Shown: positions 10,378-42,172 of the stretch, one piece after another
Layout of the letters: the number at the start of each line of letters is the position of its first letter
How positions within the stretch are numbered: position 1 is the first letter of the stretch
NCBI GenBank assembly: GCA_964291215.2
Contig: OZ219791.1
Span: 160,001-224,000, forward strand
Origin: Alphaproteobacteria bacterium
GTDB lineage: Bacteria; Pseudomonadota; Alphaproteobacteria; MPNO01; UBA830
Length of the DNA: 64,000 nucleotides
Reading direction: 5' to 3'
The notes under the pieces: model-generated
The model's database searches: none
What the model was told of the DNA's origin: nothing
What the model saw: only the letters and a program-made list of their open reading frames with translations
Translations under genes and position numbers: made by a program

Positions 10378-13300
10378 GTAACTGCTCACCCCCTGGCTCC
10401 GGCTTGATGTCGGGGTAGGCAACGAACGGGTTTTCGTGGAGATTTGACACTGCATGCCGATTCGCTTAGTGGTGGTCATCGAGAACGACGGGGACCGCCA
10501 GTGGGCTACTTTGGATCGAAGGCGACGAGCGGGCTGTGCCAGCTACTTCCGGGGCTCCAGCCTCCGCATGATCTGTATGTGGAAACGCATCTCGGAGGCG
10601 GCGCGCTGATGAAGCGCAAGGCCGGGTGATGGCGACGGTCAACGCGGCGCGCGAGGAGTTCGAAGCGGCCAAGACTGCGGCGCTGCCGGCAAGGTGCCGA
10701 AAGAGGCCGTGATCCGCGTCTTCGTCATCCTGCTCGACATCATCATCGTCGTCCTTCTGGAGAAGACCACGCACGAGCCGGAACTCCGGTCTGCCGCCGT
10801 CACAGACGGACAAGAGCGTGCCGGGAGCAACGGCCCGAAGCCGAACCGGCAGATGGGCGACAACCTGCGCAAGACCATCGTCGAGGAAACGGTCGCGGCC
10901 TGCGACGCCTGCGGCGCCGACGGCCCCGTCGATCGGGAGCGCCGCACGACATCGTGTTCGAGGTCGTCGAGCGCCGCGCCGAGATCAAGGAATGTCCGAA
11001 GTGCAAGGCCCGGGGCCGGTTCCCCGACAACATCCCGTGCAGTACGGCATCGGCATTCAGGTCCTCGTCATCAACCTGCTGGTCGCCCAGATGCTGTCCC
11101 TGCGCCGTCGCGTTCGTGCAGGCGATCTCCGGCATCAAGCTCTCCGAGGCAACCTGCCTCAGCTATGCTTTCACGATGCGCTCGTGTCATGGGAGGAGGC
11201 CGCCGTGGCGCACCTCCTGCAACGCCCAGCCCTGCATGTCGACGAGACCGGATTTCGGATCAACAGTAAGTGGCTCCATGTCGTGGGACCCTGACGTGCA
11301 AGTTCCCGCACCGCAAGCGCGGCCGGGAGGCAAGAGATCGGCATCATCCCGCGCTACAAGGGCGTCCTGGTCCACGACTGCTGGGCCTCGTACATGGGCT
11401 ATGACCAGTGTAGCCACCAGCTGTGCGGCAGCCACCTGCTGCGCGAACTGACCTTTGTCGTCGAGGCTACCGCTGGGCGCGGCTGATGAAGAGCCTGCTC
11501 CGCGAGGTCTGCCACAAGGTCAACAAGAGCGCATCCAAGACCCTGAACGACGCCGGGCGCAAGCGCTACCGCACCATCAGGGCGCCAGGGAACTGCCCGA
11601 TATCCTGCCGCCGCCAAAAGGAAAACGTGGACGCATAGCAAAGTCCGACGCGCACAACCTGCACGAACGTCTTGTGAAACACGAAAAGTCAGTCCTGCGC
11701 TTCACAGACGACCATTGCGGTAGGGAACCGGGTTACCCCCCGCACAGAACCGGACGTGCGCTGTTCGCTCCTCCCCTGACGACAAGGCGCTGGTTTGGCC
11801 ACGGGTGGCGGATGCTGGCTCAGTGGGCAGCGGCGAGGGTGTCTATGTCCCCGGTGAAGTCCTTTTGGGAGCGTCGCCGAAGGGCACGCAGCCGTTTGCA
11901 TTGGTGTATGAACCCCTGCAGGGATTGACTGCTTCCCGGGACGGCGTAGTAGCAGCCGTTGATGACTCACCACTTGGCCGTTTCGTGCCGGTTGTCGTGC
12001 CATCGCATGCGCAAGGCCCCCTTGATCCGCCGCAGGGTGCCCGTTTGCGAGACGGTTTGCGACCGACCCTGAACCTGCCTTTCCTCGTCTGTTCGCAGAA
12101 GTGCGTCATGCCGAGGAAGTCGAACGTCTTGCCCTGCTTCCGGCGGTTCGCTCTGGCAAACCGACCGAACTCGATGATTGTCCGGGTGCAGTTCAAGTGG
12201 GCCAGCCTCTCCCCAAGGTCCCGGAGAAAGCGCTGCGCATCGCCCAGATGCTGAAAGCCGCACACGAAGTCGTCCGCATAATGATCGTGTCGCCTCCAGC
12301 CATCCGCTTGCGCCAGTGGTTCTGGAACCAGTCGCACGTAGTGCAGGTAAACGTTCGCGAGGCAGGGCGATACAATCGCCCCCTGCGGTGTTCCCTTGCC
12401 CGTATCCGACCAGTCGGTCCCTTCCATGACGCCGGCGTTTAGCCACTTGATGATCAGACCCCCCGATCCGTTTCCCGAGCATCGCAATCAGGTGGTCGCG
12501 GTCGAGATTGTCGAAGAACCCGCGGGCGTCAACGATCCAGTTGACCTTCCGCCGTTCCACCGTGACGGCGTCGAGCGCGTGATGCGCCCCGGCCGGAAAC
12601 CGTAACTAAACCCGAGGAACTCCGTTTCGTAGAGCGGCACCAGAATCACACTGCCCGCTGAAGAATCTTGTCCGAGGCAAGCGGTCGTTGCCCTCCATCC
12701 TCCTTGGGTATGTAAACCCTGGAGGCGCCCGGTACGCACCCCTGTGCACACGGGCGTGCAGGTCAACCAGTTCCACACCCTCCGCATACGCTTGCCACAC
12801 AACGCCGTCCACGCCCGCCGCCGCGTCCTTCCTCAAGGAATGGAACGCATCGTGCAGAGCGTCGACCGTCACGTGGTGGAGTAAAGACGCTCTTCCGGGT
12901 TCCTCTTCGCTACCTGCGTTCAGCCGCCTGTGACCCCCGCTTCTGCGCGCGGCGCGGGCCAACCGCATTGCCCTTCCCTCCAGCAACTCCGCAGGCTCCG
13001 AAGAACCCTTGTTCGCCGCCTTCAACGGTACTATGGCCGGATCTGACTTCTCGTTCATCATCGGTTTATGGAATAGTTCCTTTCCTCTGCGGCCCCTCCA
13101 CGACAGAGGGGCAAGACCTCCCAGGTCCCTGCTTCGGCCATGGTTCTCGGACCCCGCGGAGCCCCCCTCACCAACGCGGCTCGCGGGGTGTTGCCCACTT
13201 GGACGACCTCGGCACTCCGGTTTCAAAGCATCTCGTGGCTCAATAGCCCGGCCTGCCGCTCCCCAACGCTTCGCCTGACGCCTCACGACGCATGGTTCAC

Positions 13301-13615
13301 GGAGAAAGTGGTGGTTAGCCTCTCTTCCTGCCGGGACTTGCACCCGGCAACATTCCACCAGTTAGCCTGGCGCACCCAACGTCAACTTCACCAACAATGC
13401 CGGAGAACAGAAGATCAGGATGGCAAAGGTCAAGGTGTCCGGATGCTTCCGCTCCACGCAAAAGCATGGTGCCGGGGCTCAAGCTACCTCACCTCCATGG
13501 CCGCACTCGGCTACAATCATCACGTCGCCACCCGGATCGCCCTCGACGGAAAAGTCGCAGACATCATCAACGAGCACTACGACCAATCAGAACCCAACAA
13601 GGGGTGAGTAGATAC
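10378..13615 (+). mobile_element. IS66 family element (methyltransferase-carrying type), copy A
   Basis: IRs GTAACTGCTCACCCC / GGGGTGAGTAGATAC; 8-bp TSD CCGCCACC (10370-10377, 13616-13623); LHVDETGFR, LVHDCW, FTNNAGEQKIRMAK. Confidence 0.92.
11714..13375 (-). mobile_element. ltrA: Group II intron with degenerate RT/maturase (class E-like, tentative)
   Basis: 5' GTGCG at 13375, 3' CCCTACCGCAAT at 11714; GTPQGAIVSPCLANVYLHY and YADD motifs; removal restores IS66 codons GAC GAC CCC AAC (DDPN). Confidence 0.93.
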
Positions 13616-29409: not shown

Positions 29410-30361
29410 AGGCTTGGGCTGATGATGATGGGCGGCAGCGGAGACGTTCTTCGGCAAGCTCGGCGCCATGACGCCGTCTGTGAGCACCTTGCAGCGCCTG
29501 ACCATGCAGGAGCACCGGGAAAGTCTCGGCCCCCTGGATGACATCCGGGAAGCGGAGGACATCCCGCAGGATGCAGTCACCGCCTCGCTGGACGGTGTCA
29601 TGGTGGCGCTGCGGGCCGGCGAGGGCGGCCGTTCCGAAGCCTGCTGGCGCCGCGAGGCGGCCTGTGGCACGGCCTCCTTCCACGACACCGACGGTGAGCG
29701 CCTGAAGACCGTCTATCTCGGCCGCATGCCCGAGGGCCGAAAGCACACGCTGAAGGCGCAGCTCGCAAACGAGGTCGAGCAGGCGGAGACGTCCCGATAT
29801 CGGGATCAGCGCCGACGCCGCTGCCGACAACTGGACCTTCCTCAGGGGTCTCAAGCCCGAAACCGAGGTGATCGACTTGCCTGCGAGCATCTGCGCGTGA
29901 CGGCCGACCATGCAGCGGCGCCCCACTGGTTCGAGAAATACCGCGAGATCCTGCGTCACGATCCCCGCGGCATCGACAGGGTTGATCCGGGCGCTGCGCC
30001 ACCTTCGCGACACTGCGGCGCCAACGGGCCGATGTCGACAGGGAACTGTCCTTCTTCCGCAAGCATCGCCACCGAATGCGCTACCACGCGCTGAAGCAAC
30101 CGGCTCGGGAATTGTCGAGGCGGCAAACAAGACCCTCGTCACACAGCGCATGAAACGCTCCGGCATGCGCTGGCGCATCGTCGGCGGACAATCACCTTCC
30201 GCGCCCTGCTCAAATCCGGCCGCTTCGAAAGCGCGTGGACGGCCATGATCGGTGCAGACGGCGCACCAGCCAACGACAACATCAGCCCAAATCACACCCC
30301 GGCACTGTGAGATGAACAAATGGTACTGAGCCTGCAACTGTGCCATACGAGTCTCTCACCC
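29410..30361 (+). mobile_element. ISKra4 family element, 3' portion (pseudo)
   Basis: SLDGVMV, GSGIVEAANKTLVTQRMKRSGMRW; end CATACGAGTCTCTCACCC. Confidence 0.85.
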
Positions 30362-30883
30362 GATCGGCGAGACACGGCAACCGATCGCCATGGCGCCAGG
30401 ACGGTCAGCGCGTGACGACTACGAGTATCGACGTTGCGGCACCTGCAATGTCTTCACGGAACCCCTGGCCGGCAAGCGCATGACCAAGGTGACCGAGCAC
30501 AAGACCAGGATCGACCGGGCGCAGCTCCTGGCCGACATCGCCGGGCGCTATCAGGACGCCACCACCATCACCCTGGTGATGGACAATCTCAACACTTCCC
30601 GGCGCCCTCTACGAGGCCTACCCGCCGGACGAGGCCCTGTGGGACCGCTTCGAGTTCGTCTACACCCCCAAGCACGGCAGTTGGCTGAACGTGGTCGAAC
30701 TCAACGTCATGATCCGCCAGTGTCTGAACCGCCGCATCGACTGCATCGAGGTGCTACGCCGGGAAGTCGCCGCCTGGCAGGCGACCGCATTCAGGCCAAG
30801 GTGGATTGGCAGTTCACCACCGACGATGCCCGCGTGAAACTCAAACGTCTCTATTCGACATTTGATGAATGACAGGACACTAG
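30362..30883 (+). mobile_element. IS630 type B, 3' half (copy 3)
   Basis: Homologous to 18400-18918, ends GACACTAG. Confidence 0.88.
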
Positions 30884-39036: not shown

Positions 39037-39224
39037 CACGACAATCCCACGCTGCTAATCCGGTGACGACTGGCGAGATTTTCTCAGTTTGCGTCGCGTT
39101 GCAATCGTGCCGCCAAGGCTCGATGGAACCTTCTTGGCACGAAAATTGCGATCAAGGAGGAGATCTGTGATGAGCCCCAACGCATTCGGATTTCGCGTCT
39201 CTGAATTAGCATGGGATCGTCGTG
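39037..39224 (+). mobile_element. ~190-bp MITE-like ISAs1 derivative, copy 2
   Basis: IRs CACGACAATCCCACGC / GCATGGGATCGTCGTG; homologous to 8609-8803. Confidence 0.7.
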
Positions 39225-39315
39225 CTGCTCACCTCCTAGTTCCGGCTTGATGTCGGGGTAGAGCAACGAACGGGTTTTCGTGGAGATCTGACACTGCAGA
39301 TCTATTCGGTTAGTG
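39225..39315 (+). mobile_element. IS66 left-end fragment
   Basis: Homologous to 10382-10470, lacking the terminal GTAA. Confidence 0.75.
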
Positions 39316-39560
39316 TGAACTTCCTGGGCTGCCTCCGCCAAATCCTGATCCTGGCTGAATGTCACGGCCACATCGAGAGCGCCGTTACGCGCGATTTGCA
39401 CCGTGTCGAGACCAATCCGAAGGTCTGTTTCCTTCTCGCGCTGTGCCGGCACACCATGCGTCGTACCGTCCGGAAGCGGGACCCGCTCGGAGCGCGGTTT
39501 CCGGGAGGTCACGAGAATCCCGACGCGGCTCATTGCGGTCAGGTACCGCGCCCGGCACGC
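39316..39560 (-). pseudogene. NYN (LabA/DUF88) domain nuclease fragment
   Basis: REKETDLRIGLD...DVAVTFSQDQDLAE matches NYN EKG.D / S.D.D motifs. Confidence 0.7.
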
Positions 39561-39956
39561 CGGATCTTTCCTGACGTCGGGGCATCTCCTAACCCCTCCG
39601 CAGAGGCGGGTTTGGCGTTGTGCATCTTGATCATGTCGGCGGCGAGTGCGATCCGGATGGCGACGAGCGGGCTGTAGCCGAGTGCGGCCATGGAGGCGAG
39701 ATAGCTTGAGCTTTGGTACCGGGCCTCGGCGTGAAACCAGGTTCGGAAGCGTCCGGACACCTTGATCCTGACCTTTGCCATCCGGATTTTCTGCTCGCCG
39801 GTGTCGTTTGTGAGGCTGATGTTCGAGTCGCTCATGAAGCGCAGGATGGACTCTTCGTGCCTTGCGAGACGCTCCTGGAGGTTGTGCGCGTCGGATTTCG
39901 CGATCGGTTCGCGTTTTCCTTTCTGTCGGAGCGGGATTTCAGGCAGTTCCTTCGCC

Positions 39957-40468
39957 GGGTGAGAGTTTCGTATGGCACAGTTGCAGGCTCAGTACCATTT
40001 GTTCATCTCACAGTGCCGGGGTGTGATTTGGGCTGATGTTGTCGTTGGCTGGTGCGTCGTCTGCACCGATCATGGCCGTCCACGCGCTCTCGAAGCGGCC
40101 GGATTCGAGCAGGGCGCGGAAGATGATTGTCCGCCGACGATGCGCCAGCGCATCCCGGAGCGTTTCATGCGCTGTGTGACGAGGGTCTTGTTTGCCGCCT
40201 CGACAATTCCCGAGCCGGTTGCTTCAGCGCGTGGTAGCGCATGCGATGGCGATGCTTGCGGAAGAAGGACAGTTCCCTGTCGATGTTGGCGCCGCGGTGT
40301 CGCGAAGGTGGCGCAGCGCCCGGATCACCCTGTCGATGCCGCGGGGGTCGTGACAAAATCCTGTCCCGAAACGGGCGATTGTCACGAAAACCCGTTTTCG
40401 CCGCTACCTCGCAACCGTACAACCGTGTTAAATCAATGACTTGGATTCGTCATACGAGAACTGCACCC
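39957..40468 (-). mobile_element. Internally deleted ISKra4 (512 bp) nested in IS66
   Basis: IRs GGGTGAGAGTTTCGTATG / CATACGAGAACTGCACCC; 8-bp TSD CCTTCGCC; homologous to 29955-30361. Confidence 0.88.
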
Positions 40469-41451
40469 CCTTCGCCCCCCGGATCAGGATGGTCCGGTAT
40501 CGCTTGATGACGCTGCGGCGGTCGGCCTCGTTCGTTCAGGATCCTGGATACGCTCTTGTCAACCCTGTGGCAGGCAGCAGTTTCTTCATCACGCGTGCCA
40601 GCGGTAGCCGTTGGAGTCGATGATGAAGGTCAGTTCCCCGAGCAGGTGGGACCTGCGCAGCTGGTGGGTGCATTGATCACAGGCCGGGTATGCGGCCAGC
40701 AGTCGTGGACCAGCGTGCCGGTGTAGCTGATGCCGATCTCCTCGATCGCCTGCCTGCCGCGCCTGCGATGCAGGAACTTGCACGTCCCGTCGGTGAAGAC
40801 ATGGAGCGATCGGATCCTGCCGTCGACCCGGAAGCCGGTTTCGTCGACATGCAGCGCCGTGCGTTCCGGCAGCTCGGCGATGGCGGCATGGAGTGCAGCG
40901 CGTCATGCAGGCGCCTGACGTAGCCGAGGCAGGTGGCCTCGGAGAGCCCGGAGATCGCCTGCACCAGAGCGACGGCCCGGCGCAGGGACAGCATTTGGGC
41001 GACCGGCAGGTTGATGACGAAGGCCTGCAGATCGACGCCGTACTGCAGCGGTCCGGGCATGGTCTCGGGAAACCGCCCCCGGCTCCGGCATTCCTTGACC
41101 TCGGCGCGGCGCTCGATGATCTCGAAGACGATGTCGTGCGACGCTCCCGGTCGACAGCCTCGACGCCGTCGGCGCCGCAGGCCTCGACGGCGACCGTCTC
41201 CTCGACGACGGTCTTCCGGAGGTTGTCGCCTGTCTGCAGGTTCGGCTTCGGGCCCTTGCCGCTGGCGCCGCTCGTCCTTGTCCGTCTGCGACGGCGCAAG
41301 GCCGGAGTTGGCGCGGGCCGTCTTCTCCAGCAGGACGGCAATCAGGATGCTCACCAAGGTGGACAGCACGCGGATTACGTCATCGGTCTCTCCGGATATC
41401 TTGCCGGCCGCGCCGCGGTCCTGGCCGCCTCGAACTCCTCGCCCGTCGCCA

Positions 41452-42048
41452 TCATCCGGCCTCGCCGCGAGCATCGCCTGGCGCTCGCCCGGCAGCATCT
41501 TCCGGTACCCCGCCTTGCGCTTGATGCGCTGACGGTCCGTGCGGTTCCGCCCGACATCGCCGGCCGAGTGCATCCGCCCGGGCTCGAAGTCGAGCCACCT
41601 CGGTGCGGACCCGGGGCGTCACCTGCACGGCGATGCGGCGCCAGTCCCGCAGCAGGTCGTCGTACAACGCCGAGGGGTGGCCCGAGACCATCGCCTGACA
41701 CGGCAGCCCCAGTTCAAGGAGTTCGACATGGTCGGCTTCGGTGCAGTCGTGGCGGTACCGCCGGTCCGACCGGCGGGTCGCCTGCAGGGGTCGCTGCAGA
41801 CCAGTTCCGTGCCCCGGAACGCAAGGCCGGCGGGAACGCGTGGGCGCAGCCGTGGATCAGTTCCACCGCATAGTCGCACCCGAACCCGTCCAGCGCTCCC
41901 GATCGATCCCGATAGAGCACGGCGCCTTGCGCTTCATCAGCGCGCCGCCGCCTCCCGGATGCGTTTCCACAAACAGATCATGCGGGGGCTGGAGCCCCGA
42001 AAGCAGCTGGCACAGCCCGCTCGTCGCCTTCGATCCAAAGTGGCCCAC
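41452..42048 (-). pseudogene. Dam/D12-like N6-adenine DNA methyltransferase inside IS66
   Basis: GHFGSKATSGLCQ..PPHDLFVETH.GGG, IGIDR, ELVCSDP (eroded DPPY), DHVELL, MVSGHPSALYD, VRTEV. Confidence 0.78.
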
Positions 42049-42172
42049 TGGTGGTCCCCGTCGTTCTCGATGCCCACCACTGAACGAATCGGGCTGCAAT
42101 GTCAAATCTCCACGAAAACCCGTTCGTTGCTCTACCCCGACATCAAGCCGGAACCAGGGGGTGAGCAGTTAC

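Follow-up and report, generated by a model that had tools for sequence, protein, structure and literature searches.

The 64,000-nucleotide stretch of DNA analysed here (the window) carries two decayed copies, A and B, of an insertion sequence (IS) of the IS66 family whose first gene encodes a methylase-like protein of the Upf31 family. The product of this gene probably binds a palindrome in the promoter of the element and would thereby repress both itself and the translationally coupled transposase, a control from which the lineage of the window copies appears to have escaped. The window locus is only a decayed copy of a widespread element; little is understood of how IS66 transposition is controlled, and a repressor derived from a methylase and dedicated to that task would be unusual. 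Two sequence observations extend this picture, namely the loss of the palindrome and of two aromatic residues in the window's lineage, and a restriction-site register at position +5 beside the palindromes of related phages and plasmids. No description of the IS66 cassette (gene and palindrome) or of this register was found in the literature outside subscription papers.

The features of both copies are listed in Table 1. The left inverted repeat (IR) GTAACTGCTCACCCC begins at 42172 on the minus strand in copy B and at 10378 on the plus strand in copy A, and in both copies the methylase-like frame opens 124 bp further in (42048 and 10501), directly inside the repeat as a preliminary description of this DNA had stated. 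The motifs quoted there are present as well, in copy B spread across three frames. The copy B gene is 93% identical to an intact sister of its own lineage (G000:C2:872935, minus strand), from which it differs by nine deletions of 1-15 nt and one 3-nt insertion. The DPPY-like site described as eroded is indeed so, a 7-nt deletion near 41788 having taken PPY out of ELVCSDPPY, and the reported TGATG overlap with the transposase start was recovered at 41454-41450, where the intact sister joins its stop codon to the transposase start. Copy A has lost the middle of the gene, also as described, through an internal deletion with an identical junction in 103 copies of the genome. The position 39582, given previously as the end of the element, is in fact merely a decayed inner repeat: the sub-lineage of copy B extends to about 39225, with a 267-bp segment past 39582 that we take from its motif to be NYN-like, followed by the left end in inverted form. 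A sister copy with this outer end measures 2317 bp and has a perfect target site duplication (TSD). Copy B itself has no TSD, and its last 4 nt are gone where it adjoins a MITE-like palindromic repeat of about 190 bp (39037-39224) with more than 100 matches in the genome.

Table 1. Features of element copies A and B in the window.
Feature	Position	Strand	Basis or remark
Left inverted repeat, copy B (GTAACTGCTCACCCC)	42158..42172	-	Sequence; varied flanks of read contigs
Predicted Sigma70-type promoter region	42079..42105	-	TTGACA -35 box at 42105-42100, then the decayed operator position
Decayed operator position, copy B: TGCAG-N10-TCAGT (consensus of relatives CATAG-N10-CTATG)	within 42079..42105	-	
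Upf31-family methylase-like pseudogene	41453..42048	-	Nine deletions; DPPY destroyed near 41788
TGATG stop/start overlap, methylase-like gene to transposase	41450..41454	-	
Single-ORF IS66 transposase remnant, frameshifted and split by nested element	39632..41452	-	tblastn to intact L118 (PF03050)
Nested 512-bp non-autonomous element, GGGTG ends	39957..40468	.	8-bp duplication 39949-39956, 40469-40476
Decayed inner right inverted repeat	39582..39596	.	
267-bp segment, in 10 copies of the copy B sub-lineage	39316..39581	.	No Pfam hit
Outer right end, an inverted left end including its promoter	39225..39325	+	Terminal 4 nt lost beside MITE
Copy A, whole element, both IRs, TSD CCGCCACC	10378..13615	+	Transposase broken; large internal insertion
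Copy A methylase-like remnant, first 41 codons	10501..10629	+	Junction common to 103 copies

The transposase is split into at least four frames in both window copies. Both copies are dead, with both genes broken in each. The 512-bp element nested in copy B, presumably ISKra4-like, has 73 BLAST matches in the genome and a further copy in the window at 29955-30362. The insertion within copy A (about 11705-13377, minus strand) bears eroded reverse-transcriptase-like motifs (YADD) and may be a group II intron. The small deletions are not assembly noise, since 54 of the 66 gap events seen among 53 compared copies are common to at least two of them. Public short-read contigs from three runs belonging to one study, which may include the source sample, span two of the copy B deletions without gaps and stop at 42172 with many differing flanks.

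The source genome holds about 200 loci of this family (207 by tblastn), two of which are the window copies. The left IR was found in 182 of the 198 loci having the gene start, and a perfect 8-bp TSD in 116 of these, copy A included; 12 of the 182 keep an intact methylase-like frame. Lineage Y, that of the window, comprises 168 copies, of which 103 share the internal deletion, 63 are otherwise broken and 2 have intact genes. Lineage X has 12 copies with 10 intact genes and a transposase whose catalytic region is open and whose start is disturbed, and lineage Z consists of 2 broken copies. No full-length uninterrupted IS66 transposase was present in the source genome, so that a candidate for a trans-acting transposase was not found there. 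The 53 short Y copies all differ from one another (median identity 97%), and most shared gaps measure 5-7 nt. Since the copies are all distinct and 54 of the 66 gaps are shared, erosion preceded much of the spread, and the Y copies likely moved in trans. IS66 copies throughout the genome, including the window region 39632-42048, are eroded by many deletions of 5-7 nt, often at short direct repeats, and the metabolic genes neighbouring eroded elements are intact. The shared short deletions suggest a process of deletion-biased repair or slippage.

The transposase of one genome copy matched PF03050 (E 2.5e-38) and NF033517 (260 bits, cut-off 180), and terminal IRs with a start of the GTAA type are present, as in the IS66 family. 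The intact transposase L118, which matches the window fragments, is a single ORF of 484 aa, and neither the window's lineage nor its relatives of 2.2-2.5 kb have room or an ORF for tnpA or tnpB. PMC12898284 describes elements of the ISBst12 group of IS66, such as ISDge4, as having a single ORF of about 450-480 aa and no accessory genes. The element resembles that group in its PF03050 transposase, GTAACT-type imperfect IRs and 8-bp TSD, and in its window lineage also by being without tnpA/tnpB; it differs by a putative regulatory gene and operator added ahead of the transposase, and in that one cassette lineage has a canonical TnpC plus TnpB. As for membership of the ISBst12 group, the best plasmid matches reached 32-36% identity and none of them was named.

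The methylase-like gene had been thought to be carried instead of tnpA/tnpB. This did not hold. The window's transposase belongs to the single-ORF type, and an element of genome G436 has the cassette ahead of a canonical TnpC while encoding TnpB (PF05717) and a small tnpA-like ORF on its opposite strand; two of its three copies read have TSDs. With both present in one element, the cassette is no substitute for tnpA/tnpB. The element at L431:659-3873 has the same layout, cassette and tnpC on one strand converging with tnpA-like and tnpB genes on the opposite one, and about 20 near-identical copies in G436. As 46 IS-type proteins precede two single-ORF transposase types that are about 30% identical to each other, the cassette serves three transposase lineages, these two and the canonical TnpC.

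A count of adjacent methyltransferase and transposase genes in databases had been proposed in the preliminary description. Among the best 80 of 311 matches in GTDB, from 17 genomes labelled Alphaproteobacteria, Dehalococcoidia and Binatia, the transposase lay immediately downstream in 78 of the 80 loci, with both IRs in 67 and a TSD in 51. Among the best 80 of 447 metagenome matches it was the next gene in 56 of the 63 loci with enough sequence, and the left IR was found in 64 loci, both IRs in 38 and a TSD in 5. Together with those of the source genome (116 of 182 copies), these 8-bp duplications bear out that the gene is mobilised within the IRs. In a sample of the phylum a homologue was found in 2 of 400 other genomes, neither adjoining a transposase, and genomes of relatives had one in 5 of 40, strong in 3. 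Homologues of 45-59% identity also occur in 196 plasmid and 95 phage records, with no IS66 transposase beside them in any of 77 viral and 5 annotated loci. Homologues outside the IRs had been named as evidence against a co-mobilised methyltransferase; those of plasmids and phages do lie outside, while the 46 IS-borne proteins form a branch of their own (SH-aLRT 97 in a quick, midpoint-rooted tree with SH-aLRT as its only support). Because of the midpoint rooting, and because the IS rows were picked by closeness to the query, the tree does not show the direction of capture.

The assignment of the protein to the D12/Dam class was supported by structure matches and by a SAM-binding motif I placed before DPPY, in a class I fold; in both window copies these motifs are destroyed. 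The profile search that had been suggested for MethyltransfD12 was less favourable. Pfam returned no methyltransferase hit on the window's own fragments, and an intact genome copy stayed below the cut-offs (PF02086, E 0.035, 14.3 bits against 22; TIGR00571, 24 against 115), Upf31 scoring 26.8; in the family, PF02086 matched 66 of 115 members at E<=0.01. A sequence search of the PDB gave DpnM at E 0.5 with the single sequence and 0.006 with a profile; TPR-like designs ranked above it were dismissed as chance. The predicted model (pLDDT 84) had EcoDam and DpnM as its best Foldseek matches, and VIA-align placed DpnM, Mcbe1 (M.CbeI-type), EcoDam and T4Dam at Z 16.6-17.4 and rmsd 1.9-2.5 over 141-149 aligned residues. 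Since model residues 2-168 span DpnM 15-284 with 149 aligned, the target-recognition domain of about 100 residues is absent, and residues 170-217 are modelled as extra helices. Thus the cassette protein shares with DpnM, EcoDam and T4Dam the catalytic fold, the motif order and DPPY, but it lacks their target-recognition domain and has a helical C-terminal extension of about 50 residues. Hia5, Hin1523 and Nme1821 likewise have Dam-like motifs and reside on mobile elements, but as described in PMC3299994 they are active and have a divergent region (residues about 80-170) at the target-recognition position, which sets them apart.

The closest characterized relative is Upf31 (upf31.0) of IncP-1beta plasmids such as pBP136. 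With the intact gene of lineage Y it shares 44% identity across 222 aa, the homology including the C-terminal helical domain, and scores 233 bits against the family profile. According to PMC11997246, Upf31 cut the activity of its own promoter from 4.76 to 0.09 units, about 50-fold, and repression was lost in the mutants Y180A, F185A and W198A; binding to the operator is inferred rather than shown in that text, which ties Upf31 to the IncP-1beta repeat clusters, of unexplained function. The two proteins agree in full-length alignment, two-part build, DPPY and motif I, and both genes have an operator behind TTGACA, in the form of a 20-bp palindrome with a 10-bp spacer. They differ in the half-site, CATCG for Upf31 and CATAG for the IS cassette, which lies within an IS and is coupled to a transposase, encodes no KorB partner and has one operator instead of clusters. 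In PMC11997246, Upf31 is placed in group beta and regarded as mostly restricted to IncP-1beta; here both the fold and the order of the motifs resemble Dam, and homologues were common in IS elements, phages and other plasmids. Among IS proteins, positions 176 and 181 are both aromatic in 33 of 44 scored rows, the window's lineage being an exception, and W194 is present in 46 of 46.

The putative operator has a constant layout in the IS elements. Ahead of the gene stand TTGACA, one base and then CATAG-N10-CTATG, which overlaps the -10 box, and TTGAC with the palindrome was found in 34 of 38 IS representatives (clustered at 85%). A spacer of 10 gave 27 matches in IS and 66 in phage and plasmid representatives; other spacers gave at most 9 in the latter and at most 4 in the former, save for 13 at spacer 15. 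On pBP136 the geometry is identical with the half-site CATCG (13 matches with spacer 10 and no more than 2 with any other), and CATCG-N10-CGATG occurs on other plasmids as well. Phage and plasmid homologues have arrays of CATAG palindromes nearby (29 of 31 representatives, 69 operators in all); in some phages these arrays flank the gene on both sides, and they also adjoin promoters of P2-like phages that we take to be late-gene promoters. The palindrome travels with the gene and not with the transposase, since it is present with the gene where the transposase is missing and falls to chance level in IS66 relatives without the gene (1 match in 9 loci). A host regulon is not indicated, as 12 of the 13 perfect operators in the source genome lie inside elements. 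A DNA site is favoured because the spacer of the palindrome is fixed in length yet does not pair. A search of 17 loci with Rfam at the gathering threshold returned only a tRNA, so that the palindrome matches no curated RNA family. LexA, whose box is CTGT-N8-ACAG, was rejected as the binder by reasoning, its orientation and spacer being different. Scanning viral contigs for the pattern placed the gene no more than 1.2 kb away in 16 of 80 and in 5 of 28 loci; 41 of 121 loci had too little DNA, and many of the other matches were chance-like. Arrays of operators with restriction sites are also found between the genes of P2-like late operons, ahead of those for tail sheath and baseplate and at a distance from the methylase-like gene (L268, L273, L275, L278, L282, L286, L296, L298 and L339, at about 1080-1260).

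The conservation of gene and operator speaks to the idea that the cassette was taken up by the IS for the ribosome loading and strong promoter that it provides, the protein doing nothing for the element. The commonest copies do have the gene deleted or broken, and IS66 relatives at 31-37% transposase identity lack it. However, the median dN/dS is 0.14 (1054 non-independent pairs), the motifs are invariant, and both the operator, in 34 of 38 representatives, and the cassette, over three transposase lineages, have been kept, which makes such neutral cargo very improbable.

Shielding of the element and remodelling of host methylation, both raised in the preliminary description, fared little better. 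A broad-specificity adenine methyltransferase could protect the element or its vector, the palindrome merely limiting the dose. Its catalytic motifs are intact and the target-recognition domain is absent, homologues lie on conjugative plasmids near ccgAII and radC/JAB genes and on P2-like phages, and non-specific adenine methyltransferases of phages exist, as PMC3299994 reports. Against this, Upf31 overexpressed from a vector in E. coli ER2796 neither restored GATC methylation and its protection nor gave a SMRT pattern in PMC11997246. A shield of its own would also be of little use to a chromosomal IS, and 166 of the 168 copies in the largest lineage lack an intact gene. We therefore regard shielding as unlikely. 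A third suggestion, that the gene regulates the ends of the element, came closest, with the amendment that regulation appears to act on the promoter and not on the IR.

Under the repressor model, a protein of the Upf31 family, putatively as a dimer, would sit on the 20-bp palindrome across the element promoter and repress its own gene together with the coupled transposase. In a newly arrived element both genes would be expressed briefly; as the protein builds up, it would shut them down in trans and limit transposition as the copy number rises. The catalytic pocket, with intact SAM and DPPY motifs, may engage a base next to the operator. Having neither palindrome nor aromatics, and with the gene mostly deleted, the window's lineage would have lost this control, and its broken copies would have been moved in trans. 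Transporter ISs are ISs carrying passenger genes, and here too a non-transposase gene moves inside the IRs, but its product appears from the sequence to regulate the transposase rather than to serve the host. Genes annotated as 'DNA adenine methylase' (3691 matches) may be regulators. A repressor alone would not need DPPY, yet the motif is invariant, being present in 46 of 46 IS and 33 of 33 phage and plasmid representatives (142 of 150 among distant ones).

A fixed register was observed beside the palindromes of phages and plasmids. In 31 representatives, 90 of 134 operator flanks carry GATC, TCGA, TGCA, GTAC, GGCC or AGCT with the host-methylated base at +5, whereas column shuffles gave 22.6 +/- 4.0 (maximum 38 in 2000) and the random background is 2.2%; offsets other than +5 reach at most 5 of 138. 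Full sites among the 134 flanks include TGGCCA (21), CTGCAG (19), GGTACC (17) and CAGCTG (4), plus others. Every restriction motif has its own fixed offset from the half-site: the start of the site varies (+2 to +4 for the 4-bp cores) and the methylated base is constant, with A or C at +5 in 119 of 138. Of the CTGCAG and GGTACC sites in 208 kb of phage DNA, 23 of 43 and 24 of 40, respectively, adjoin an operator. A register by cut position or site centre was ruled out on inspection of the offsets, the cut positions being those we assume for these enzymes. The six motifs and their offsets were chosen after the phage set had been viewed, and many of its rows are related P2-like genomes. Data examined later agreed: 13 of 26 flanks on pBP136 fit +5 (other offsets at most 4), as did 8 of the 32 flanks of seven further plasmids (no more than 3 at any other offset). 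The methylated positions placed at +5 are our assumption for all motifs other than GATC, ATCGAT and AGCT. For GATC and ATCGAT they are backed by PMC4752239, and for the cytosine of AGCT by PMC12707154.

The invariant DPPY and this register suggest that the catalytic pocket may engage the +5 base. The protein could accordingly be an operator-guided methyltransferase or reader of methylation, a dimer on the palindrome with its pockets reaching the base 5 bp outside the half-sites; in phages and plasmids, where that base would be methylated by the host, repression would depend on the mark, which is compatible with the repressor model. We consider this a real possibility, while leaning against it. 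It would account for the excess over shuffled flanks and for the retention of DPPY. In addition, the SMRT analysis in PMC11997246 used an expression vector in place of a repeat-bearing plasmid, so a few operator-adjacent marks could have escaped it. On the other hand, the motifs were selected post hoc among kindred phages, with methylated positions mostly assumed, Upf31 gave no methylation in the same report, and in IS elements a restriction site at +5 was found in 0 of 34 cases on either side. The left +5 base in IS elements is the C that pairs with the G of the -35 box.

Tentatively, proteins of the Upf31 family may thus be methylation-gated repressors, in which a Dam domain without target-recognition domain would probe the +5 base on the operator. 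If so, the module would tell a mobile element whether a new host has marked its DNA and would set the downstream gene accordingly, be it an IS66 transposase, an SspA/DndA-type gene (one plasmid) or possibly late genes of P2-like phages, and the repeat clusters of IncP-1beta plasmids, long unexplained, would be accounted for.

Returning to the repressor model, the operator in the 168 copies of the window's lineage has decayed to TGCAG-N10-TTAGT (score 4-5 of 10), and its two intact proteins have H176 and H/R181 where Upf31 needs aromatics. The joint change of palindrome and aromatics fits a likely escape from repression. The pairing of the two losses occurs in one clade (2 genome copies and L105), and in four representatives a good operator is retained although the aromatics are not both present. 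Bursts would not be prevented by repression, since elements with an intact operator have multiplied too (12 copies in the source genome, 28 matches in G436). The source genome nevertheless offers a natural contrast, with 168 copies of the lineage that loses operator and gene against 12 of the lineage that keeps them.

Cassettes also occur in other settings. A homologue at L441:1489-3329, which has one CATCG operator, lies ahead of, and overlaps, a cysteine desulfurase gene of the SspA/DndA type (PADLOC) and a DUF4007 gene; an operon for phosphorothioation defence may begin with the cassette there. At L442:1501-3011 and L443:1447-3026, homologues with TTGACA and CATCG overlap by 1 nt a gene of 276-277 aa that has no PADLOC hit; these coupled pairs lie near a 7-cyano-7-deazaguanine synthase gene. 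Finally, leaders of IS elements, for example those of L125, L135, L154 and L180, contain a second inverted repeat, GATCC...GGATC, past the -10 box and reaching the ribosome-binding site. It has compensatory variants and may block the translation of read-through transcripts.
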